A stretch of DNA of 64,000 nucleotides, from NCBI GenBank assembly GCA_963797555.1, contig CAWCPV010000003.1:736001-800000 (forward strand), written 5' to 3'. Position numbers and translations under genes: made by a program. The notes under the pieces are model-generated. The model had not been told where the DNA came from. It did no database searches and saw nothing but the letters and a program-made list of their open reading frames with translations. Source of the stretch: an uncultured Gammaproteobacteria bacterium (GTDB lineage: Bacteria; Pseudomonadota; Gammaproteobacteria; CAWCPV01). Shown one piece after another: positions 39,769-50,923 of the stretch. Numbering within the stretch: position 1 is the first letter of the stretch; each line of letters starts with the position of its first letter.

Positions 39769-40134
39769 TCAGTGCCCCGCCAAGATGAGGACCCACGCCA
39801 TGAGGGCTAGCAGTAGCGTACAAAACACCGCCGCCGAGCCCAGGTCCTTGGAGCGCCCCGCGAGATCGTCGCGTTCCGATCCGCCTCGGTCGACCGCCGC
39901 TTCGATGGAGGAGTTGATTAGCTCTACGATCAGCACCAGCCACCAACTGCCGATGAGCACTATGCGCTCCAGAGCGCTGTGTCCAAAACGGAGCCCCAGC
40001 GGGACCGCAATGGCGAGAACGAGGAGTTCCTGGCGGAACGCCTGCTCATAACGTAGTGCCGCGTGTATGCCCGATACCGAGTAACGTGTCGCCCTGGCAA
40101 CGCGCAGCAAGGGGTTGACACTGTGATTGGACAT
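39769..40134 (-). CDS. dgkA: Diacylglycerol kinase (DgkA)
   Basis: YSVSG..AA.RYEQAFRQE, VELINSSIEAAVDR, SKDLGSAAV. Confidence 0.95.
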   Translation of the reverse strand: MSNHSVNPLLRVARATRYSVSGIHAALRYEQAFRQELLVLAIAVPLGLRFGHSALERIVLIGSWWLVLIVELINSSIEAAVDRGGSERDDLAGRSKDLGSAAVFCTLLLALMAWVLILAGH

Positions 40135-40509
40135 CGGGGGTCTCCAGGGCGGACGCGCAACAATTCTATGCCGATTCGCCGGCGTCGCGGTAATCCCGGA
40201 GTTTCCCGAGGCGCCCTATCGGGCGACGGGGCGCGGTCGCCCATCGCGCGGTACAGACCAAGCTCGTCGCCGAGGATGATGCGCGCCATCATCGCTGCAC
40301 CCCCATGGCGGTGACTAGCTTGTCCATGAGCTCTTCAGTTCGGCCTCGTTCATTGCCTACCTACGTTCTCCGGAAAACACCTACGTATCGGACTGCCTCT
40401 TCCCGTGGAGAATCCTCCTCTCTTTCTGGCCGGGATGCCTGACACCGGACCTCAGCGGCGTGCGTCTTTGGCGCGTCCAGTGAATGACCCGCCGTGCCAG
40501 CCGATCATC

Positions 40510-40710
40510 TCAGACACCCTCCTCCGCCTTGCGCGGTCTTCCTTTCGGCAGCGGTGCCACGCGGCGGGCCGCGGCGGATGCAATCTGTTCCGTGAAACGC
40601 TCCGACCCCAGCACCCACCCCTTGCTGGTAGCCTCGCGAAGCTCCTTCAGCGTCGCTTGCCCGATATGGCCTTTGAACAAGGCGCCGTACGCTGTCTGCC
40701 GCGTAGACTC
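40510..40710 (-). pseudogene. C-terminal remnant of a RAYT-type transposase (not in the ORF track)
   Basis: Manual translation RQTAYGALFKGHIGQATLKELREATSKGWVLGSERFTEQIASAAARRVAPLPKGRPRK aligns with the C-terminus of the 42771-43469 protein. Confidence 0.8.
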
Positions 40711-40841
40711 TTATAGAATTGCGAGCGATGTAGCGCTGGCGGTAGCATGGGCGCCTACTACCCTAATCTGTCTGCGCAAGACCCAGCGAAGCGGGACATG
40801 AGGGACGAGACATTGCGAGGCACTGGACTTTGGAGGGGTCG

Positions 40842-41207
40842 ATGGCAACGGCATGGGACACCCTGACAGGGAAGAGTATTGAGTGGACAGGCGTTCACCA
40901 CTCCGTGCATGGGGACTTCAACGACCTCTCGACCCATGTAGTAAGCTACGAGACCGAAGACACATGGTACGTGACAGCTGATGGGAAACTCGTAGGCGAA
41001 GCGACATACACGTACAAGAAGTTGGACGACCGAATGGCGATCCTGATCTACCGACCCGAGCGCTACCAAGGCAGAGCCGACGTCGTTTTGTACGCAATGC
41101 TGGATTTCGCACAGGCGACCGATCGCGCCGTTATCCTCGCGGGGGGCGAGCCGTTCGCGGTTGCGGACGGCACCATACGCGAAGTCGCTACTCCGCCGCG
41201 ACCGTAG
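40842..41207 (+). CDS. Hypothetical beta-rich protein (possibly MoaF/lipocalin-like)
   Basis: GGAGG RBS, ATG, plausible globular composition; family assignment weak. Confidence 0.65.
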   Translation: MATAWDTLTGKSIEWTGVHHSVHGDFNDLSTHVVSYETEDTWYVTADGKLVGEATYTYKKLDDRMAILIYRPERYQGRADVVLYAMLDFAQATDRAVILAGGEPFAVADGTIREVATPPRP

Positions 41208-41297
41208 CGGTACCGTTCGGGACATGCCGCTTAACGGCGATTAGGGGACCCGACGACAGGTATCAACGCCTCACGCTAGGCGGGGAGCTGCCGGGTC

Positions 41298-42570
41298 TCA
41301 GCCATTCACGATGCCATCCGCGATTCTGGCAGCGAGCGCGACGCCCGTGAGCGTCGGATTGACGGCCATTCGTGTAGGAATCAGCCCGTTCGTTGCCAGG
41401 CGGAGATTGTCGAAACCCCAGACCCGGCCGTTGTAGTCGGCAACGCCGGTACCTGCCGAGCAGGCTGGTGAGCTCGTCCGCATCCCCTTCGGCACCCGCG
41501 AGTCTCGACTCGTCGGCCGCGGAGAGAGGTACTTCGAAACTGGGCCGGCTACGCTCGTCGAAACGGATTCCATTCTTTTCGTCAACGTCGACCGGGCAGA
41601 TGAGTTGCATCTCGACAATTCGGTTCGGGTCGATCGCCACGTCCGGTTCCGTCGGCTTGAATGGCGACACGTCGCGCAGGACTAGCGCATACCACTCCGC
41701 CGCTCCGGTCGGAGGGATCTGCAGGCGCGGCACGCGGTCGGGGACCCCCGGCTCGGCGCACACGCTCGCGTCGAGAACCAGTTGGGTGATCAGGATGGGG
41801 TGGTAGGAAAGCCAGCGCCCCAATGCCCGCGGACGGATCCCGGACCGGTGGAGAAGCTCGGGTGTGCCGATCGCGCCGGCGGCGATGACGACCTCTTTGG
41901 CTTCGATCGTCTCGGTCCCCACGACCACGCCGGTGATCCTGGAGCCATGCCCGACCACGGCGCTCACGTCCGCGCGGGAGATCCGGACCCGCCTGGACGT
42001 GGCCGTCGAACCGGCCAGGATGTCGTATGGCGCGGAGAAATGGAGATCGCCTTCGGCGTCGAACCGGGCGGCAACCGGCAATGCGCTGATAGTGCGTCCA
42101 CGCGCAGCCAGATGACCCGCAAGCTTGGCCCGGATACGTCGCTGGCGCAGCGATGCCTCGAACCCCTCGGCTTCCACCCCGAGATACTTCTCCGCGATCG
42201 CGTAATACTCGTCCCATTGGGCGGATGTGAGGGCACCCCAGCGGGCGTCGCCGCGCGGACAGAGGTTCGTCCAAATCACCCCTTGGCCGCCGCGCGCCCT
42301 CGTGACCGCTGCGCCTGGCAGACGGTCACGGGGGGCCGCGCTGTCGAAGTGCGCGAGATGGCCGGCTGCAACTTCGAGATAGGCGTCCGGATCTCTCCGG
42401 AAGCAAGCATCGTTACGTACATGTGATCCAGGGGGGTCTGAGATCGCGGGCCCCTGCTCGAGGATCAAGACACTCCGCCCGTGCTCGGCGAGTCTGCGCG
42501 CTACGGTCGTACCAAGCGGGCCGCTGCCCACGATCAGCACGTCAAATTTCTGGGCCATCGAGTCCGCCAA
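41298..42570 (-). pseudogene. GMC oxidoreductase (pyranose oxidase-like) with internal deletion/frameshift near 41450
   Basis: DVLIVGSGPLG..VAR.L...G.SVLILEQG, GGQGVIW, VVIAAGAIGTPELL.RSG; tail VADYNGRVWGFDNL...NPTLT lies in another frame and the H-x-x-G-T segment is missing. Confidence 0.8.
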
Positions 42571-42770
42571 ATGGGAGGGTCCTTCGTTGCGCAGACCGGG
42601 GCCTGGAGCCGAACCAACGCCTTAAGTTAACTGGAGGGGCCTGCCGGAGCGGCGAAGCCGCGGAGGCAGGGCCGTTGGGTGGAACGCCTGGTTGGGCGGC
42701 GTGTGTCGACATGGCTCAAGAACGCTGTTCAACGTGGCTTTCATGAACGGGCAACGGGGTCACACACGCA

Positions 42771-43469
42771 TCATCTTTTCTCGGCCTGCCCACACACCCC
42801 CTTGGATGCTGCACGCCGCTGCCCCAGCGCCTCGACTTGGTCCCTGAACCGCTCGCCACCGAGCGCCCAGCCCTTGTGCGTGCATTCGCGGATCTCCCTC
42901 AGGTCGTTGCCGGAGACGGCCGCCCGGAACAATTGCCGGTAGGCTCCTTGCCGGTCTGCCGCAGTGCGGCCCAATCGCAGATATTCCTCGTGCGGCCTCA
43001 TCCAGTCTGCGTTCAATCCCGACTCGCCATGCGCATGGTAACGGTAGCTTGACCAGGGGTAATCCCTGGGGTGCGCCACCAGGCCCGCCCGCACCGGGTT
43101 GAGCTCGATGTAACGCATCAGCGTCAGCAGATACCGCTCGCTATCGACCACCGTCGCCCGGTAGCGGCCTTCCCACAGGGTGCCGCTGCGCCGGTACGTG
43201 AAATTGAAGTACTGCACATAACGCCGACCCACTGACTGGAGGACTTTGCTGATGCTGTGGTCGAGTTCAGGCGTTGCCAGCAGATGGATATGGTTGGTCA
43301 TCCAGACATACGCGTGGATCGCCAGAGCATGCTGACTTGCCGCTTCCACCAGGGCATCGCGAAAAAACTGATAGTCCGCCTCCGCGGCAAAGATGACCTG
43401 GCGGTTGTTGCCGCGCTGGATGATGTGCTGCGGCTGCCCAGGGATGACGTAGCGGGGAAGGCGAGCCAT
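42771..43469 (-). mobile_element. RAYT-type (IS200-like Y1 HUH) transposase, full-length copy
   Basis: MARLPR...HIIQRGNNRQ.IF, YVWMTNHIHLL (HUH), GTLWEGRY, RYIELNPVRAG, YPWSSY; bracketed by inverted GGGGTCA(G/C)ACACG motifs at 42756 and 43523. Confidence 0.92.
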
Positions 43470-43572
43470 GGCGGTTCAGGTCGTGAGGTGACTGGACGAA
43501 GCATAGCACAGATATCGGATATCGTGTCTGACCCCATTCGTCTTTGCAGATATCGGATATCGTGTCTGACCC

Positions 43573-45072
43573 TAATGGCACTTACTTAACCTTTTTCGGA
43601 TGTCCGTTCTCGCGGATTTCTTCCCGTACGAGCTGTCTTGGCTTGCAGAGCAGCGGAAACGGTTTGGGTCGGCGTTTGACCGCTCTTGGCTCGACGCGCC
43701 GGGGGCGTTTCCCGACCCGCTGCTCGGCGATCATCACGAGTAAGGCAGACAGAGTGACGGGGTCCTGCGCCCCGCCACGTTGCTGCCACACTGTCCAGAT
43801 CTGGACGGTATGCTTGAAGCTGAGCTGGCGCGGGGTCTGATCGGCCAGCCAGGCGGCCTGGGCCATCAGCAACCGGATCAGATTGTAGGCCAGCAGATGA
43901 ACCCAGACCTCTTTGATCGCCATCTCCGGGGTCTTGCAGCTCAGCATCTCCATGCCGAGCGTGGTCTTGATGTGGCGTAAGTCCAGCTCCACGTGCCAGC
44001 GCCGGCGATACAGCGTCTTGAGGGCGGGCTTCGGAGTGTGCCTGGGGCAGCAGAGCTGGTGACCAGGGTCTTGCGGCCGGTGTGTAGCTCGCGCACCTGC
44101 AGGCTCTCGGGGGCTTGCTGTAGTCGGCCTGGCGCATCCAGTCGGGCTTCTTGGGCTTGTGCAGCACGATGAGGTGGTCGCGCTCGCCGAGCTTCTCGCC
44201 CACAGAGAAGTCGATGCTGCGTCGCCGTGCCCCGTACTGTTCGAATACTCCGTCCACGCCCCGTTGCACCAGCTCGGAGAGCAGGAAATAGGTCGCGTAG
44301 AAGGCATCCCCCAAGAGGATGTCACCGGGGCGCAGGGTATCGAGCTGGGAGCGCAGCAGAGTCTGTTCATCGCTTCCCTTGCCTTGGCACGGGCCAGTGG
44401 CCACATCGAGCAACCGCCACTGCCCAGGCACAGCAAAGCGACCAGGCGGCACTGGGGAAAGCCCAGGCCCGCCTTCTGGCTGGCCGGTTGCGGATAGGCC
44501 GCTTGATTCTCCGGTGTATCCGGCAGCACCACCGTCGCCCCATCGACCAGACGCACCGGGCGACCCTGCCAGTGCCACATCGCCGGGGCACCCTCGGCGA
44601 TGAGCCGCCCGGTGTGGCGGCACAGCCGCGTGACCATCTGAAGCGGCAGGCGCTGTCGTGCCTTGCAGTACGCCCCGGTGTGGGTACTGCATCGCGGCAG
44701 GCCGCCCACCAGGCGCTTGACCGCAGCATCATTCACCGCTTGCTGGCAGGAGCGGTCCGCCGAGAGCGTCTGCGCAAGAAACATCGACAGCGTCTCGGTG
44801 GGTGCAAACAGCCGCTCACGGTGCTCCGGCAGCAGCGACTCGACTTGCTCGAACAAGCGCGGGCCGGTGAGCAGGTTGAAAAACGCGTAGGTATCCGTGT
44901 TGGCAGCCTGATGACGAACCCGTCGCTGTTGCTGAACGCAGGCGCAGTGGCTAGGATGCATGAGGGCTGGCTCCCTGGGTGATGGACGTTGTGTTTGGCG
45001 ACTCAACAGCCTATCACCTACGCCAGCCCTTCTGCATGCAAATTCAGTCAGTTGCGCTTAAGTAAGTGCCAT
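43573..45072 (-). mobile_element. IS4-family element copy 1 (DDE transposase frameshifted)
   Basis: TIRs taatggcacttacttaa / ttaagtaagtgccat; LVDGATV, LGDAFY, LYRRRWHVELDLRHIKT (YREK); flanked by direct repeat cgtgtctgaccc. Confidence 0.93.
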
Positions 45073-45095
45073 CGTGTCTGACCCCATTCGTCTTT

Positions 45096-45317
45096 GATGA
45101 TGCTGTGGTCGAGTTCAGGCGTTGCCAGCAGATGGATATGGTTGGTCATCCAGACATACGCGTGGATCGCCAGAGCATGCTGACTTGCCGCTTCCACCAG
45201 GGCATCGCGAAAAAACTGATAGTCCGCCTCCGCGGCAAAGATGACCTGGCGGTTGTTGCCGCGCTGGATGATGTGCTGCGGCTGCCCAGGGATGACGTAG
45301 CGGGGAAGGCGAGCCAT
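45096..45317 (-). pseudogene. RAYT copy 2: 5' fragment nearly identical to copy 1, cut off at the end motif
   Basis: Sequence 45098-45392 matches 43250-43544. Confidence 0.9.
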
Positions 45318-45394
45318 GGCGGTTCAGGTCGTGAGGTGACTGGACGAAGCATAGCACAGATATCGGATATCGTGTCTGACCCCATTCGTCTTCC

Positions 45395-45787
45395 GCCAGC
45401 GCCGCCCGCACCGGGTTGATCTCGATGTAGCGCATCAGCGTCAGCAGATACCGCTCGCTATCGACCACCGTCGCCCGGTAGCGGCCTTCCCACAGGGTGC
45501 CGCTGCGCCGGTGCGTGAAATTGAAGTACTGCACATAATGCCGACCCACTGACTGGAGGACTTTGCCGATGCTGTGGTCGCATTCAGGCGTTGCCAGGAG
45601 ATGGATATGGTTGGTCATCCAGACATACGCGTGGATCGCCAAACCATGCTTCCCTGCCGCCTCCACCAGGGCATCCCGAAAGAACTGATAGTCCGCATCT
45701 GCGGCAAAGATCACCTGGCGGTTATTGGCGCGCTGGATGATGATGCTGTGGCTGCCCAGGGATGACGTTGCGGGGAAGGCGGGCCAT
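45395..45787 (-). pseudogene. RAYT copy 3: diverged 5' two-thirds, cut off at the end motif
   Basis: MARLPRNVIPGQPQH...YVWMTNHIHLL...RYIEINPVRA, then the motif; one frameshift. Confidence 0.9.
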
Positions 45788-45947
45788 GGCGGTCCGTGTC
45801 GTGAGGTGACTGCACGAAGGATAGCACAAAATATCGTGTCTGACCCCATTGACCCCATTGCCTTGCCTGCCATTGCCTTGCCTTGTGTCGCGAAGGGTGA
45901 GACCGGTCAATCCGACATGCGCTCCTCATACACCCTCAAGCTTGCTC

Positions 45948-46820
45948 TCAGTTTAATGACCGCGGATAGTCAAACGGATTTTCATTGAGCTCGATCAGGA
46001 AACCCTCCGGCGCGCTCCTTTTGAAATAGATCTCCCAGTCGTTATTTGGAATGATAACGTCATTCTCGCCGATCCTAATTCCGATCGGTCTGCATTTCAC
46101 GTCCTTTCCGAATACCGCGTAGACAGCCATATCGACGAACACCTCGTTATCAGGATTGCTGCTTCTCAGATGCGTATCCTGAATAGCAAACGATTTAAAT
46201 CTGCCTCGCCCGTCGTTCAACGCGACAAGATCCTTGACCACAATTGGGAACTCGTGGGACCCGTCAAACTGAACAAACACGCCGCTTGGGTGACCCGGCG
46301 CACCGCTGCTTTTCACGTAGCTCGGGAAATCGCCGTGAAAGATGCGCACTCTGCGCGCAAGAGTCGGAAAAATCGCGAGGAGCCGTTCGTAAGCAAAACC
46401 AAGATAGTGGGGATTCACGTCGATCAGATCGAGCGTGAAGTCGAAGTCCTCTGCAGCTTGGATCAGGAACTGAGATGCACCGCCGAGAAATACGCCGACC
46501 TCGCAAACATGTTTGATAACGCCGCGATTCTTCTCGATATAATCCATCAAGTCCAGGTAGTATTGCCCCGAGCACTGCTCCGCGTGTGGCACAAACGTCC
46601 CGTCCAGGGCCGACAGGTATTTATCGAAGAACGCGCTCCTGCCTCGCAGGGAATCGTGCACTGCGGAACTCCAGGGCTCGCGGGATACCAATTGAGGCTC
46701 AAGATTGTATTTCTTGACGATATCGCCGCCCTCGCTACATCGGCTGACATCGAGGAACGTACCGAAGGTGGGGGTGGTTCGAAGGTAATTGATGACCTCG
46801 TTCTGCACTTGTCTACTCAT
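45948..46820 (-). CDS. Class I SAM-dependent methyltransferase (Methyltransf_24-like), lower GC than flanks
   Basis: VCEVGVFLGGAS, DLIDVN, VQFDGSHEF..V..D, AIQDT. Confidence 0.75.
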   Translation of the reverse strand: MSRQVQNEVINYLRTTPTFGTFLDVSRCSEGGDIVKKYNLEPQLVSREPWSSAVHDSLRGRSAFFDKYLSALDGTFVPHAEQCSGQYYLDLMDYIEKNRGVIKHVCEVGVFLGGASQFLIQAAEDFDFTLDLIDVNPHYLGFAYERLLAIFPTLARRVRIFHGDFPSYVKSSGAPGHPSGVFVQFDGSHEFPIVVKDLVALNDGRGRFKSFAIQDTHLRSSNPDNEVFVDMAVYAVFGKDVKCRPIGIRIGENDVIIPNNDWEIYFKRSAPEGFLIELNENPFDYPRSLN

Positions 46821-46837
46821 GGAACCCCTCTCATTCT

Positions 46838-47250
46838 CCTGATTCCGTGACTTCGCGTCTTAGCGGATGGCTGCAACCTGCTGATTTATCGTTGCAGTTC
46901 AGCTAAAATCGGCCCGCGGCTCAACTCACCCGACAGGTGAACGATGAAGCGGTTCATCTTGGAGCGGTCCGATGAGCAATTCTACACCTCCCATTCTGGT
47001 CTGGCCTTGGTCGGTCTTTGCGTCAACCGCTTTAGCGGGCTGGGCAAGGCGCTGAGGCAGGCGATCCCGCTACGCCACGGCATCTCCCATGAAGACGTAG
47101 CCAAGAGCTATCTGGGGTTGATGTGTTTGGGCAAGAGCGACTTCGAGGCGCTCGCCAACGTCCGAGAGGACAATTTCTTCCGCCAGGCGCTGGGGCTGGA
47201 TCGGGTACCCTCAGCAGAAACGCTGAGGCAGCGTCTCAACGAGCAGGGAG
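46838..47250 (+). mobile_element. Truncated IS1380-family element (left end plus transposase N-terminus from 46944)
   Basis: MKRFILERSDEQFYTSHSGLALVG...LGKSDFEA...FF.QALGL.RVPSAETLRQRL; begins cctgattccgtga; cut at the GGGGTCAGACACG motif. Confidence 0.8.
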
Positions 47251-47268
47251 ACAATGGGGTCAGACACG

Positions 47269-48757
47269 AATGGCACTTACTTAAGCGCAACTGACTGAAT
47301 TTGCATGCAGAAGGGCTGGCGTAGGTGATAGGCTGTTGAGTCGCCAAACACAACGTCCATCACCCAGGGAGCCAGCCCTCATGCATCCTAGCCACTGCGC
47401 CTGCGTTCAGCAACAGCGACGGGTTCGTCATCAGGCTGCCAACACGGATTCCTACGCGTTTTTCAACCTGCTCACCGGCCCGCGCTTGTTCGAGCAAGTC
47501 GAGTCGCTGCTGCCGGAGCACCGTGAGCGGCTGTTTGCACCCACCGAGACGCTGTCGATGTTTCTTGCGCAGACGCTCTCGGCGGACCGCTCCTGCCAGC
47601 AAGCGGTGAATGATGCTGCGGTCAAGCGCCTGGTGGGCGGCCTGCCGCGATGCAGTACCCACACCGGGGCGTACTGCAAGGCACGACAGCGCCTGCCGCT
47701 TCAGATGGTCACGCGGCTGTGCCGCCACACCGGGCGGCTGATCGCCGAGGGTGCCCCGGCGATGTGGCACTGGCAGGGTCGCCCGGTGCGTCTGGTCGAT
47801 GGGGCGACGGTGGTGCTGCCGGATACACCGGAGAATCAAGCGGCCTATCCGCAACCGGCCAGCCAGAAGGCGGGCCTGGGTTTTCCCCAGTGCCGCCTGG
47901 TCGCTTTGCTGTGCCTGGGCAGTGGCGGGTTGCTCGATGTGGCCACGGGAGTGCCAAGGCAAGGGAAGCGATGAACAGACTCTGCTGCGCTCCAGCTCGA
48001 TACCCTGCGCCCCGGTGACATCCTCTTGGGGGATGCCTTCTACGCGACCTATTTCCTGCTCTCCGAGCTGGTGCAACGGGGCGTGGACGGAGTATTCGAA
48101 CAGTACGGGGCACGGCGACGCAGCATCGACTTCTCTGTGGGCGAGAAGCTCGGCGAGCGCGACCACCTCATCGTGCTGCACAAGCCCAAGAAGCCCGACT
48201 GGATGCGCCAGGCCGACTACGAGCAAGCCCCCGAGAGCCTGCAGGTGCGCGAGCTACACACCGGCCGCAAGACCCTGGTCACCACGCTCTGCTGCCCAGG
48301 CACACTCCGAAGCCCGCCCTCAAGACGCTGTATCGCCGGCGCTGGCACGTGGAGCTGGACTTACGCCACATCAAGACCACGCTCGGCATGGAGATGCTGA
48401 GCTGCAAGACCCCGGAGATGGCGATCAAAGAGGTCTGGGTTCATCTGCTGGCCTACAATCTGATCCGGTTGCTGATGGCCCAGGCCGCCTGGCTGGCCGA
48501 TCAGACCCCGCGCCAGCTAGCTTCAAGCATACGTCCAGATCTGGACAGTGTGGCAGCAACGTGGCGGGGCGCAGGACCCCGTCACTCTGTCTGCCTTACT
48601 CGTGATGATCGCCGAGCAGCGGGTCGGAAACGCCCCCGGCGCGTGAGCAAGAGCGGTCAAACGCCGACCCAAACGTTTCCGCTGCTCTGCAAGCCAAGAC
48701 AGCTGTACGGGAAGAAATGGAGAACGGACATCCGAAAAAGGTTAAGTAAGTGCATTA
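47269..48757 (+). mobile_element. IS4-family element copy 2 (inverted relative to copy 1)
   Basis: Same TIRs and transposase; flanked by direct repeat gggtcagacacg at 47257-47268 and 48758-48769. Confidence 0.93.
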
Positions 48758-48773
48758 GGGTCAGACACGGTTA

Positions 48774-48835
48774 TCATCCTTTCTCGGTCTGCTCACATCC
48801 TTGGACGCTGCACGCCGCTGCGCCAGCGCCTCGAG
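48774..48835 (-). pseudogene. RAYT 3'-end remnant
   Basis: tcatcctttctcggtctgctcacatccttggacgctgcacgccgctgcgccagcgcctcga matches the 3' end of RAYT copy 1 (42771-42835). Confidence 0.8.
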
Positions 48836-48961
48836 CGGCACGCGTCGGCCGAGCAGGAGGCCGACGTGGCTCACGCCAGTAGAGCACCTGGTGGCGGCGC
48901 CCAGCCGCCTGATGGCGCGGCACCGCAGGGAACCCGCGGGGCGGCCGGCGCCGGTCCACCG

Positions 48962-49120
48962 CTAGCCCGCAACGCGCTGCACATCCACCCGGACCGTGAG
49001 TTCATGGTCCCCTCCTCCCAGAAGCACGCCCTTGAGGGGCGTCACGTCTCCATAGTCCCGGCCCCAGGCCAGGGTGACATAGCGCTCGCCGGGGGCCTGG
49101 TCGTTGGCAGGGGTTCGAAG
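48962..49120 (-). pseudogene. C-terminal remnant of a bacterial transglutaminase-like gene
   Basis: ANDQAPGERYVTLAWGRDYGDVTPLKGVLLGGGDHELTVRVDV. Confidence 0.75.
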
Positions 49121-49306
49121 TCTGACAGCATGAGGCCCTGGACGAGAATGCTGCCTTCGGGTCGGACCCGCTCTTCCCCCGCGTGCGGTGGCCGATCGGC
49201 GGCCCGCTTGCGGGGAAGAGGCCGCTATCTTAACCTCCCACGGTGCGTTTTGGTTCCTGATCTGGGGGGCGGTCGGGCTGCCTCTCGGGAGTCCACGAGA
49301 AGAGTG

Positions 49307-49450
49307 AAAGCTTGCGAAGAGGTCTGCTCGGCGTCCCGGTGGCGGCGTCGCGCGGTGGCGGCTCCTCGCCCATGGACGGGACGAGTCTCGCCGCTGCGCT
49401 TCGTGCGCGTTGCTCTCGGGCCGCTCGCGACGATTTCTTGGCAAGCCCCG
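49307..49450 (-). repeat. Modular MITE-like repeat, copy G (empty form, no internal module)
   Basis: aaagcttgcgaagaggtctgct...gctcctcgcc...gttgctctcgggccgctcgcgacgatttcttggcaagcc matches both arms of copy E. Confidence 0.75.
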
Positions 49451-49576
49451 AGGCAGCAGGGCTCCGGTGCGGACCGCCCGACGGGGTTGGGGGAACGGGA
49501 GCACGCACGCGGCGCAATGTTGCGGAAGCGGTAGCGGAGGCCCGATAGGCAAGGCGCTGAGCGCGAGGTACAAGCT

Positions 49577-50923
49577 ATGCAAACTGCGGACTTCATCGTC
49601 ATCGGAAGCGGCCAGGGAGGGGTACCGTTCGCCGCCGACATGGCCCAGGCGGGCAAGCGGGTCGTCCTGTTCGAGCGCGGCGCAATAGGCGGGACCTGCC
49701 TCAACACCGGCTGCACCCCCTCCAAGGCGTTCCTGGCATCGGCCCACGCGGCCGGCAGAGCGCGCCTGGCCGAGCCGCTCGGGGTGCACGCCCGAGTCCA
49801 GGTGGACTTCCCCCGGGTCATGGAGCGGGTGCGCCGCATCCGCGACGAGTTCGGGCAGGGCGCGGAGCGCCGGCTGCGGGATGCCGGCGTGCGGCTCGTC
49901 CGGGGGGAGGCCCGTTTCGTGGGCGAGCGGGCGGTCTCGGGCGGCGGCGTCGTGGTGCAAGCCCCGGTGGTCGTCATCAACACCGGGGCCTCCCCGTCCC
50001 GACCTCCTGTCTCCGGCCTGGAGGACATTCCCTTTCTCACCAGCAACAACTTCTTCCAGCAGACCGAATTGCCGGCGCGGGTGCTGGTCATGGGCGCCGG
50101 GTACGTGGGCCTGGAACTGGGCCAGGGCATGGCCCGGCTGGGCAGCAGCGTGACAATCATCGACCTCGCGGGCCGAGCGCTGCCCGCCGAGGAGCCGGAC
50201 GTCGGCCGCGCTCTCCAAGAGGCCCTGGAGCAGGACGGAGTGAGGTTCCGCCTGGGAGCGAGAACGACGCGGGTGGAGCACGCCGGAGGCGTCTTCACGG
50301 TGACGCTGGACGACGGCTCCCGGCTGGAGGGGGAAGCGTTGCTCGTCGCGGTGGGGCGCCATCCGAACACCGCCGCACTGCACGCGGACGAGGCGGGCAT
50401 CGAGTTGGACCAGCGGGGCTTCGTCAAGACCGACAGCCGGTTGCGCACCTCTGCGGCGGGCGTGCACGCCATCGGCGATGTGGCGGGCCAGCCGCAGTTC
50501 ACGCATGTGTCCTGGGAGGACTACCGGCGCCTCAAGGGCGTCCTGGCCGGTGAGCCCCGCAGCCGAGACGATCGCGTGCTGGGCTATGCCGTCTACACCG
50601 ATCCCCAGGTGGGTCGCGTCGGGGATACCCTGGAACAGGCCGAGCGCCGGGGCCTTCGCGCCAGGGCGGTCACCTTGCCCCTGGAGAATGTCGCTCGCGC
50701 CTACGAGCTGGGACAGACCAACGGCTTCTTCCGGCTGGTGGTGGACCAGGACAACGACAAGATCCTCGGCGCGACCCTGGTCGGCCCGGAGGCCGCGGAG
50801 CTGGTCCACGTGCTGCTGGCCCACATGGAAGCGGGCTCCACTTGGCGGGTCCTGGAGCGCTCGGTGCACATTCACCCCGCTCTCGCGGAGGGCCTGCCCA
50901 GCCTCGCCAGGCTCCTGGTGTGA
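49577..50923 (+). CDS. Flavoprotein disulfide reductase (dihydrolipoamide dehydrogenase/MerA-like family)
   Basis: VIGSGQGG, GGTCLNTGCTPSK redox disulfide, GAGYVGLE, AIGDV, HIHPALAE; lacks the MerA C-terminal CC. Confidence 0.92.
   Translation: MQTADFIVIGSGQGGVPFAADMAQAGKRVVLFERGAIGGTCLNTGCTPSKAFLASAHAAGRARLAEPLGVHARVQVDFPRVMERVRRIRDEFGQGAERRLRDAGVRLVRGEARFVGERAVSGGGVVVQAPVVVINTGASPSRPPVSGLEDIPFLTSNNFFQQTELPARVLVMGAGYVGLELGQGMARLGSSVTIIDLAGRALPAEEPDVGRALQEALEQDGVRFRLGARTTRVEHAGGVFTVTLDDGSRLEGEALLVAVGRHPNTAALHADEAGIELDQRGFVKTDSRLRTSAAGVHAIGDVAGQPQFTHVSWEDYRRLKGVLAGEPRSRDDRVLGYAVYTDPQVGRVGDTLEQAERRGLRARAVTLPLENVARAYELGQTNGFFRLVVDQDNDKILGATLVGPEAAELVHVLLAHMEAGSTWRVLERSVHIHPALAEGLPSLARLLV

Follow-up and report, generated by a model that had tools for sequence, protein, structure and literature searches.

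A probable TIRtron cluster with end scars and overlying repeat-homing IS4-family insertions in an uncultured gammaproteobacterium

Genes resembling those of the RAYTs, tyrosine transposases associated with repetitive extragenic palindromes (REPs), and flanked by inverted repeats have been named TIRYTs, and the units that they form TIRtrons, with many of the repeats sharing the sequence GGGGWSAS (Di Nocera, De Gregorio and Rocco 2013, PMC3733652). They probably correspond to subclass 2.1 of the TnpA-Y1 transposases, which was reported from 14.9 % of strains and is described as having a C-terminal helix-turn-helix (HTH)-like extension (Bac_DnaA_C, HTH_23 or HTH_28 likeness) and no REP (Quentin et al. 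2018, PMC6006769). To this subclass were assigned 291 of the 292 sequences (PMC6006769) of RAYT group 1, the most widely distributed of the RAYT groups (Bertels et al. 2017, PMC5581495). The article text of the two TIRYT papers (PMC3733652, PMC6006769) gives the class 2 genes a low copy number, describes formal evidence for their autonomous mobility as lacking, and calls binding and cleavage tests of TIRYTs still to be done. RAYT groups 2 and 3 recognise sites with a GTAG (GT[AG]G, at the base of the palindromic REP) and a hairpin, and their cuts, made at CT or CA, flank the site on both sides (Corneloup et al. 2021, PMC8266576). Here, a cluster of RAYT-like gene copies is analysed in a window of 64,000 nucleotides (nt), positions 736001-800000 of contig C3 (CAWCPV010000003.1), from an uncultured Gammaproteobacteria bacterium (assembly GCA_963797555.1; source genome G000; 5.35 Mb, 64.7 % GC, 20 contigs, completeness 84.6 %). 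Positions without a contig name are those of the window. The cluster had been read in an initial annotation as a little-characterised Y1 rearrangement system, a description that gives way to a published one, as the element fits the TIRtron/TIRYT class with its GGGGWSAS tip. As a whole, the locus is probably best explained as a TIRtron cluster with end scars, overlaid by repeat-homing insertions of an IS4-family insertion sequence (IS).

The 13-base pair (bp) motif GGGGTCAGACACG, with at most one mismatch allowed, has eight matches in the window, all between 42756 and 48769, while 100 shuffles gave a mean of 0.16 and none reached eight. These are the eight occurrences listed in the initial annotation, the last of which begins at 48757 and not at 48758. 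Genome-wide, 37 matches were found at the same threshold (sixteen of them exact), and 24 of the 37 are located at ends or fragments of one TIRtron family (family A) or at flanks of IS4 copies. The other thirteen are at about chance level (0.16 per 64 kb over 5.35 Mb, or approximately 13). The most frequent 21-mers of the genome (72 and 55 copies) are repeats unrelated to the motif. The motif is the core of a terminal inverted repeat of about 19 bp (consensus aAATGGGGTCAGACACgAT) that bounds a TIRtron of 0.79 kb, and serves, as first suggested, as the end signal of a RAYT-like Y1 element that is present in several copies and has no palindromic REP. The one full gene in the window is bracketed by an inverted pair of the motif, at 42756 (+) and 43523 (-), in accordance with the earlier description.

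42756 (one mismatch), 47256 and 48757 (one mismatch), + strand: motif matches
43523, 43561 (one mismatch), 45073, 45371 and 45835, - strand: motif matches
42753-43538, - strand: intact TIRtron 1, with the right repeat (42753-42768), the TIRYT gene (42771-43469), a leader of about 53 nt and the left repeat (43523-43538)

The TIRYT gene (42771-43469, - strand) encodes 232 amino acids (aa) with a Pfam Y1_Tnp domain (6.3e-13), and scores 80.0 bits against the NCBIfam model NF047646 ('REP-associated tyrosine transposase', REP_Tyr_transpos; cut-off 80). The residues H60 and H62 of the HUH motif (H60-I-H62) and Y120, N124 and P125 of the Y---NP motif are invariant in 41 sequences. The predicted structure (predicted local distance difference test score, pLDDT, 85.1; predicted template modelling score, pTM, 0.84) finds its best fold match in 4ER8, the E. 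coli TnpA-REP (Z 15.4, root mean square deviation 2.6 Å, 159 residues aligned), followed by the IS608 TnpA (Z 7.6). By sequence, 4ER8 was matched with an E value of 7e-7, and the PDB profile search matched the Y1 core alone. Past the core, the whole-protein model predicts three helices (residues 170-182, 187-199 and 206-216), and a Pfam search with residues 136-232 was empty at E ≤ 10.

Three full copies of the gene are present in the source genome (the window copy, C3:414671-415423 and C4:653518-654306; 89-91 % mutually identical), together with ten fragments. Homology among the full copies starts at AATGGGGTCAGACACG, approximately 55-60 nt before the ATG, and stops at CGTGTCTGACCCCG(T/C)T, about 25 nt after the stop codon, with unrelated sequences flanking it on both sides. 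The sequence TGCTATGCT is conserved about 20 nt inside the left repeat (43480-43505 in the window, and in the leaders of loci L017-L035 from many genomes), and could be an extended -10 element, which would place the -35 region on the repeat itself. A consensus promoter scan of 42600-46000 returned no sites. The leader also contains a 7-nt GATATCC/GATATCT duplication. A miniature derivative of the family A unit, about 150 nt long and without a gene, lies at C4:327405-327556, where nt 5-81 of the left end are fused to nt 709-788 of the right end, and it has an edge stutter of its own.

The repeat is conserved around TIRYT homologues in the beta- and gammaproteobacteria. When one genome per species was scanned, 220 relatives were found, and the best 80 (69-84 % identical; mostly Thiobacillus, Nitrosospira, Methylotenera and other beta- or gammaproteobacterial records) were used for comparison. 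With up to two mismatches allowed, the motif was present within 130 nt upstream in 69 of the 76 testable loci (four were too short) and its reverse complement within 110 nt downstream in 53/80, with both sides occupied in 50/80. Both ends could be located in 47 loci, which were used for the consensus and for the target duplication and scar analyses, and their 94 ends gave aAATGGGGTCAGACACgAT. The tip of the repeat, GGGGTCAG, matches GGGGWSAS at positions that are 99-100 % conserved in the 94 ends, a conservation of the core that is biased by the 12-mer with which the ends were located, the flanking AAAT and gAT lying outside the search string. No GTAG occurs within the conserved 19 nt, folding showed no significant hairpin at either TIRtron end (z of -1.3 to +1.1 against shuffles), and no TIRtron target duplication was detected beyond that in shuffled pairs (k = 3-8, offsets 0-9, the 47 paired loci). 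Furthermore, 29 of 301 genomes from the class (28/300 without the unpublished G140) contain the 17-mer ATGGGGTCAGACACGAT with no more than one mismatch, while its reversed sequence, used as a control, is absent everywhere. Its copy number is one to nine in most genomes, 15 in the source genome and 28 in G273.

The element therefore belongs to a described kind, TIRtron/TIRYT, probably equivalent to Y1 subclass 2.1 and RAYT group 1: its protein is a TIRYT, its ends are inverted repeats and their tip is GGGGWSAS, and the canonical GTAG and hairpin are absent. As in other TIRtrons, an HUH/Y1 gene stands at fixed distances from terminal inverted repeats and not from REP hairpins, the repeat has few copies (the 17-mer has 15, compared to about 12 for the 16-mers flanking group 1 genes), the protein is longer, its additional C-terminal part being predicted as helical, and the distribution is patchy. 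It differs in that several copies and many end fragments are present, and in that a second family in the same genome has copies 98.9 % alike at different sites. The REPtron/RAYT-REPIN systems of groups 2 and 3, represented by the E. coli, Stenotrophomonas and Marinomonas enzymes, share the fold, the catalytic motifs and the inverted cognate sites flanking the gene. Unlike in these, there is no GTAG, palindrome or high-copy REP/REPIN population, and the gene is not single-copy. Similarly, the IS200/IS605 elements (IS608, ISDra2) have a Y1 HUH transposase, make no target duplication and are cleaved some nt away from the structure that is recognised, but their ends are same-strand subterminal hairpins where inverted repeats are found here, and the IS200 model NF033573 gives the TIRYT protein 19.6 bits against a cut-off of 55.

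The intact TIRtron is accompanied by several incomplete relatives.

40513-40710, - strand: C-terminal stub of about 66 aa from a third TIRYT family (tblastn, 44-46 % identity to the family A copies; 45 % at 40555-40707)
43509-43572, - strand: 38-bp tandem duplication of flank, left repeat and leader start; copy 1 at 43509-43546, copy 2 at 43547-43572 and resuming at 45085-45096 past the IS4 copy IS-A
45092-45392, - strand: partial copy 2, with a 6-nt flank, the left repeat (45371-45386), the leader and the first 75 codons
45393-45850, - strand: partial copy 3, with the left repeat (45835-45850), the leader and codons to about 144; frameshift near codon 15
45841-45883, - strand: stutter duplications at the outer edge of left repeat 3 (TRF, period 9 with 2.2 copies at 45841-45860 and period 15 with 1.9 copies at 45855-45883, both 100 %)
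48758-49107, - strand: patch of 350 nt copied from or to a locus on C14 (98 % identical to C14:122011-122359)

The five pieces within 8.3 kb that the initial annotation ascribed to one RAYT are all present, but a single RAYT is inexact, the stub at 40513-40710 being of a different family (44-46 %); a second scrap lies at C14:449597-449678. Partial copy 2 is identical to 43244-43543 at 299 of 300 nt and matches element nt 3-289, its protein part (45093-45317, - strand; aa 1-75) being 98.7 % identical by tblastn. Partial copy 3 is 94 % identical to 43076-43375 and 91 % identical over element nt 2-457, and its protein part (45367-45741, - strand; aa 16-144) is 83 % identical by tblastn. Read along the gene strand, the order is left repeat 3, the gene to nt 457, AAGACGA, left repeat 2, the gene to nt 289, CAAAGACGA, the left repeat of the 38-nt unit (broken by an IS4 copy), CAAAGACGA again and the intact unit (left repeat 1, full gene, right repeat). 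Both truncated copies, 2 and 3, are partial, anchored at the left end and arranged in tandem, head-to-tail, on the upstream side of the intact unit.

The truncations do fall beside the motif, as had been proposed. Copy 2 ends at 45092-45097, 7-11 nt from the motif at 45073-45085, copy 3 at 45393, 9 nt from the motif at 45371-45383, and a truncated IS1380 piece at 47245, 10 nt before the motif at 47256. Counted from the first G of GGGG, the positions of the junctions are -9 (copy 3), -6 to -11 (copy 2) and -8 (the IS1380 piece against the 350-nt patch). At the copy 2 junction, the site inside the gene and the flank share the microhomology AAG (CTTTG on the + strand), and one base is changed. 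The 350-nt patch comprises a right repeat, 77 nt of a TIRYT 3' end (48758-48834, or element nt 698-774; 94.8 %) and the 3' end of a gene, which is transglutaminase-like on a reading of its open reading frame (ORF). Its left edge (47248-47267, before the insertion of the IS4 copy IS-B) is 8 nt outside GGGG, with the same GAGACAAT start at the C14 locus. In the source genome as a whole, left-end fragments outnumber right-end ones by eight to two, the two right-end fragments being copies of each other. At C7:296516-297083, two left-end fragments 435 nt apart break off at element nt 134, with an identical stretch of 70 nt after each; the pair is a tandem duplication of a truncated unit together with its flank. 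A GGGGTCAGTTC-bearing sequence follows the break in these fragments and also at C7:298623. Viewed as a whole, the window locus is a mosaic of mobile-element debris of an ordinary sort.

A second mobile element has entered the repeats of the first, at two places in the window.

43573-45073, - strand: IS-A, IS4 family; 11-bp target duplication at 43562-43572 and 45074-45084
47268-48757, + strand: IS-B, IS4 family, inverted relative to IS-A; 11-bp target duplication at 47257-47267 and 48758-48768

Further copies identified by blastn are full (C8:49449-50946 and C4:462335-463831) or a fragment (C3:407110-407388). The C8 copy has an open frame of 475 aa, assigned to the IS4 family transposases (NF033592, 225.8 bits, cut-off 115; DDE_Tnp_1, 3.4e-18). 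Relative to it, IS-A has three one-base deletions, the three bases being present in contigs from four runs of one study (X1-X4), and IS-B has approximately 14. The element ends, GAATGGCACTTACTTAAG and TAATGGCACTTACTTAAC, and the size of about 1.5 kb fit the published description of the IS4 subgroup, namely ends of the form -AATR--------WTW, a length of 1400-1650 bp and a target duplication of about one helix turn (PMC2266710). The four full copies are flanked by 11-bp direct repeats (GGGTCAGACAC twice, GAGTCTGACCC and GGGTCAGACTC), and the single preserved end of the fragment abuts a variant of the same target, so that all five copies, four full and one fragmentary, lie inside AATGG(G/A)GTC(A/T)GAC. 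The uninterrupted site of IS-B exists at C14:122348, reading GAGACAATGGGGTCAGACACGGTTATC..., and removal of IS-A with one half of its duplication restores a 38-nt unit identical to its neighbour. The motif matches at 43561, 45073, 47256 and 48757 each correspond to one half of an IS4 target duplication. Half of the eight motif copies thus exist only because IS-A and IS-B each duplicated 11 bp (GGGTCAGACAC) of the repeat, and since the flanks of each copy rebuild one intact site, both are simple insertions. For the same reason, an inversion between IS-A and IS-B was rejected.

Some further features of these copies may be recorded. The IS4 ends (43573-43590 and 47268-47285) begin (G/T)AATGGCAC, which resembles the start of the target repeat, AAATGGGGTC, and all five copies share one orientation relative to the repeat. 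Tandem doublets of the 11-nt GGGTCAGACAC with no IS between them are found at C4:654280/654291 (to 654303), C3:415410 and C2:117596/117608 (to 117620), and may be footprints of lost IS4 copies. Imperfect 19-nt palindromes, AATGGGGTCAGACTCCATT, occur at C8:51823-51841 and C14:26467-26485, and the same sequence is the target of the C8 and C4 copies; their interpretation as excision footprints was dropped, as all share the same imperfection and look like copies of one repeat.

The association extends to other genomes. Among the 80 homologue loci, 18 matches to ATGGCAC[TC] were found, seven of which carry the TTAAG end signature (L021, L031, L040, L059, L086 and two in L092), and all seven abut the repeat core; nine matches lacking the signature have no repeat alongside, and two in L072 are ambiguous. 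Betaproteobacteria bacterium UKL13-2 (G301), the complete genome from which L091 and L092 derive, has a 45 %-identical IS4 relative with 12 matches, and all nine of its full copies (1515 bp, with nine different left flanks) lie in GGGG(T/C/A)CAG-type repeats. Eight of the nine have matching 11-bp duplications and one has hybrid flanks, the flanking sequence being GGGTCAGACAC in six, GGGTCAGCGAC in one and GGGCCAGGCTC in two. The one full copy of a relative in G303 also lies in the repeat, and no complete ends were found at two G302 loci. In metagenome contigs, 80 loci carry the right-end 16-mer, of which 25 were dropped as non-IS-like, duplicate or short, leaving 55 distinct flanks that continue CA[TC]T. 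GGGGWSAS is present on either strand within 20 nt at 13 of these 55, compared to 2/53 in a control window, and near variants are many more. On plasmids, a 68 % relative from Aeromonas caviae abuts GGGGCCAGGCCCG.

Insertion sequences that target REPs have been described, including the IS4-family ISRm22 as well as ISPpu9/ISPpu10, ISPa11, ISPsy8 and IS1397 (Tobes and Pareja 2006, PMC1525189). The present element resembles them in that all copies occupy one position of a short genomic repeat and are flanked by direct repeats. It is unlike them in that the target is the end repeat of another transposon, the TIRtron, and not a REP hairpin, in its 11-bp duplication, and in a habit that is common to relatives of 45 % identity and extends to at least three repeat variants. 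No literature linking IS4 elements to TIRYT repeats was found, the supplements of the papers, which may hold this repeat or IS, lying outside the search.

End scars recur throughout the TIRtron family. Many of the 80 loci have several same-orientation copies of the motif before the gene, and L019 and L021 resemble the window in that a full unit is directly preceded by a partial copy of the gene, about 32 codons long, which has a left repeat to itself. The second right repeat of L042 adjoins a run of N and was ignored. In the paired loci, a 10-mer spanning the outer edge of the repeat was sought again within 70 nt outward (at most one mismatch), with a control taken 150 nt further out. Edge-spanning duplications were present at 14/43 left ends and 13/47 right ends, against 0/39 and 0/45 in the controls, and the recurrent breakage and rejoining just outside the motif that had been attributed to this element family is seen family-wide (27/90 ends against 0/84 controls). 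A second control, with the edge shifted 28 nt outward, gave 7/90; it overlaps the arrays and is not clean, and the 150-nt control is preferred. The same probe was positive at five of 19 ends in the source genome. Exact-run analysis of the 90 ends yielded 25 duplications, with units starting at -5 to -12 (20/25 at -7 to -10) and partial copies ending after GGGGTCA in 7/25, after GG in four and after GGGGT or GGGGTC in four. The junctions in the window, 6-11 nt outside GGGG, coincide with the start of these family-wide duplications. An origin of the edge-spanning stutters as IS4 excision footprints was rejected, as IS4 duplicates positions +1 to +11 inside the repeat and these stutters start outside it. 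In the article text of the two TIRYT papers (PMC3733652, PMC6006769), the term 'tandem duplication' has no occurrence, and end stutters or an IS4 association are absent under that term.

The second TIRYT family in the source genome (family B) forms a unit of about 837 bp with the repeat AAAGGGGCCAGGGTCG and copies that are 91-99.9 % alike; one in-frame TAG is reported in the gene of three copies.

C4:649954-650790, C4:651416-652252, C18:47987-48788, C2:121932-122751 and C4:563094-563915: family B copies

In two of its copies, which are 98.9 % identical and located at different sites, the shared sequence runs on past the left repeat for 3 nt and past the right one for 7 nt, while two copies in the complete genome of L091/L092 share 4 nt beyond AAAT. 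From such shared flanks, the unit that is moved seems to reach a few nt past the repeat.

The tandem copies and duplications in the window may be by-products of nicking by the transposase, and a nick-extend-rejoin mechanism is put forward tentatively, its chances being judged a little below even. The TIRYT would nick a few nt outside the repeat, near its outer edge, leaving a 5'-phosphotyrosine link and a free 3'-OH, a chemistry borrowed from published relatives. A polymerase would extend the 3'-OH and displace the old strand. A second cut, in many cases behind GGGGTCA, which like the site of the Marinomonas enzyme is a CA site, would then allow the extended strand to be joined to the 5' end of the old one, held by the enzyme. 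In the resulting tandem duplication, the first cut would mark the start and the length would vary from 9 nt to several hundred nt, and units would pile up beside the active copy, the newest nearest. Such a cycle would account for units that are anchored at an end and lie beside the full copy, the youngest closest to it, and for the occurrence of scars at both ends. In rolling-circle HUH systems (Rep proteins, IS91), nicking, extension of the 3'-OH and rejoining by the enzyme-bound 5' end would give products with one fixed and one variable end. Unlike the TIRYT, a Y1 enzyme, those systems use Y2 or Rep-type enzymes, and the likeness would be one of analogy.

The alternative that fares best, although it is considered unlikely, is that the partial copies and small duplications arose without the enzyme, through replication slippage or tandem duplication at microhomologies, in a 'junkyard' region that tolerates such events, with the closeness to the motif arising because repeats recombine. 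The AAG/CTTTG microhomology at the copy 2 junction would suit it, as would the wealth of IS debris in the region and the GATATCC/GATATCT duplication in the leader, but edge duplications at 27/90 ends in other genomes against 0/84 controls, preferred breakpoints that recur in unrelated genomes and the many junctions without microhomology speak against it. Somewhat less probable again is nested transposition, in which complete units would have entered resident copies, by self-targeting or with a 6-nt flank carried along, and lost their 3' remainders to later deletions. Such a history is consistent with the same AAGACGA before three left repeats, with units elsewhere that carry 3-7 nt beyond the repeat and with the clustering of TIRYT copies at three loci of the genome; it is difficult to reconcile with the lack of any 3' remainder of copies 2 and 3 beyond the right repeat of the intact unit, and several independent deletions would have had to end at the same spot.

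It is improbable that the Y1 enzyme made most of the breakpoints, including the IS1380 truncation and the IS4-adjacent motifs, and also trapped a methyltransferase gene and a GMC oxidoreductase gene as cargo. The three truncations 6-11 nt from the motif and the family-wide scars at the same offset agree with it, but it is already contradicted at the four motif copies that are IS4 target duplications, for which intact sites were found or reconstructed, and the supposed cargo lies outside all repeat pairs, the methyltransferase DNA being low in GC, probably foreign and next to an IS1380 end. Of the earlier proposal that the Y1 element organises the motif copies and breakpoints, the end signal and the breakage outside the motif stand, and the half of the motif copies made by IS4 falls away. 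That the tandem copies are an artefact of a repeat-rich, indel-prone metagenome assembly is most improbable, for while the one-base deletions in IS-A (three) and IS-B (about 14), the apparent frameshift of the GMC gene and the lack of read cover at 45112-45896 would allow it, the junctions are unique with changes of their own, the same architecture appears in the L019 and L021 assemblies, and copy 3 has diverged and is not a collapsed duplicate.

Several points weigh against the preferred reading, a TIRtron cluster scarred by its own transposase and overlaid by IS4 insertions. TIRYTs are not known to cleave DNA, and the proposed mechanism is read from scars. The microhomology at the copy 2 junction amounts to 3-6 nt, which enzyme-independent illegitimate recombination also yields, and the outer breakpoints, varying from -5 to -12, are not sequence-defined. 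The divergence of copy 3 (6-9 %) calls for either a long stay at the site or a separate origin, and the 89-91 % identity of the three full copies suggests a family A without very recent transposition of whole units in this genome. A distant IS4 relative (54 %) on an Acidovorax plasmid has an unrelated target with a 10-bp duplication, leaving one of the two plasmid records abutting the repeat. Finally, the assembly has many one-base indels, so that broken frames in the region may be errors, and the contigs of runs X1-X4 cover only the IS4 and IS1380 parts of the region, with nothing on the tandem pieces at 45112-45896.

The remaining features of the region lie between or beside the TIRYT pieces.

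45948-46820, - strand: methyltransferase-like ORF of 290 aa (Methyltransf_24, 21.3 bits, below the cut-off of 26.3)
46837-47245, + strand: left end of an IS1380-family element, cut at 47245 (positions 5-103 of 419 in the NF033539 profile)

The DNA of the methyltransferase-like ORF has 52-54 % GC, compared to about 65 % around it, and is probably foreign; both repeats adjacent to this segment turn their outer sides to the ORF. The IS1380 piece is matched over at least 398 nt, at 89-94 %, in 18 other places of the genome. The GMC/FAD oxidoreductase ORF (41263-42570) has a frame change near its 3' end, with the expected C-terminus in an overlapping ORF (41298-41618), and is either a pseudogene or affected by an assembly indel. 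Both genes had been taken for trapped cargo, yet they lie outside every repeat pair and nothing supports trapping. A repeat of about 150 nt at 49295-49455 has about 30 copies at 76-91 % identity over many contigs. The 72- and 55-copy repeats dominate the 21-mer table and, from their appearance, resemble CRISPR repeats, and runs of A or T of at least 12 give 99 overlapping 12-mer counts. An Rfam search of 40000-50000 gave no match at E ≤ 0.1.

For the TIRYT family, the locus documents unit boundaries, with several copies ending exactly at the repeats and a second family in which copies at separate sites are 98.9 % identical, and it yields specific predicted positions of strand cleavage. It is also a clean example of one IS family homing to the end repeats of another element, and illustrates that in repeat-rich regions duplicated 'end motifs' can be the target duplications of a second element. 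Two side results of specialist interest, the prediction of cleavage positions and the IS4 homing clade, are worth a look. Taken jointly, it is rather doubtful, on the sequences compared here, that both would hold, that is, that TIRYT cuts 3-6 nt outside AAAT and after GGGGTCA with a rolling-circle-like record, and that a clade of the IS4 subgroup is specialised on one register of the GGGG(T/C)CAG tip. If they did, TIRYT activity would leave a readable record in the form of 9-17 nt stutters and end-anchored partial copies that can reach hundreds of nt, and the cleavage sites of the second-largest Y1 subclass would be mapped concretely for the first time. The IS4 clade, down to 45 % identity, would be a transposon living on the ends of another transposon in many proteobacterial lineages, and its homing would explain the 'spectacular' target specificity of IS4-subgroup elements that was noted, unexplained, in 2008 (PMC2266710).

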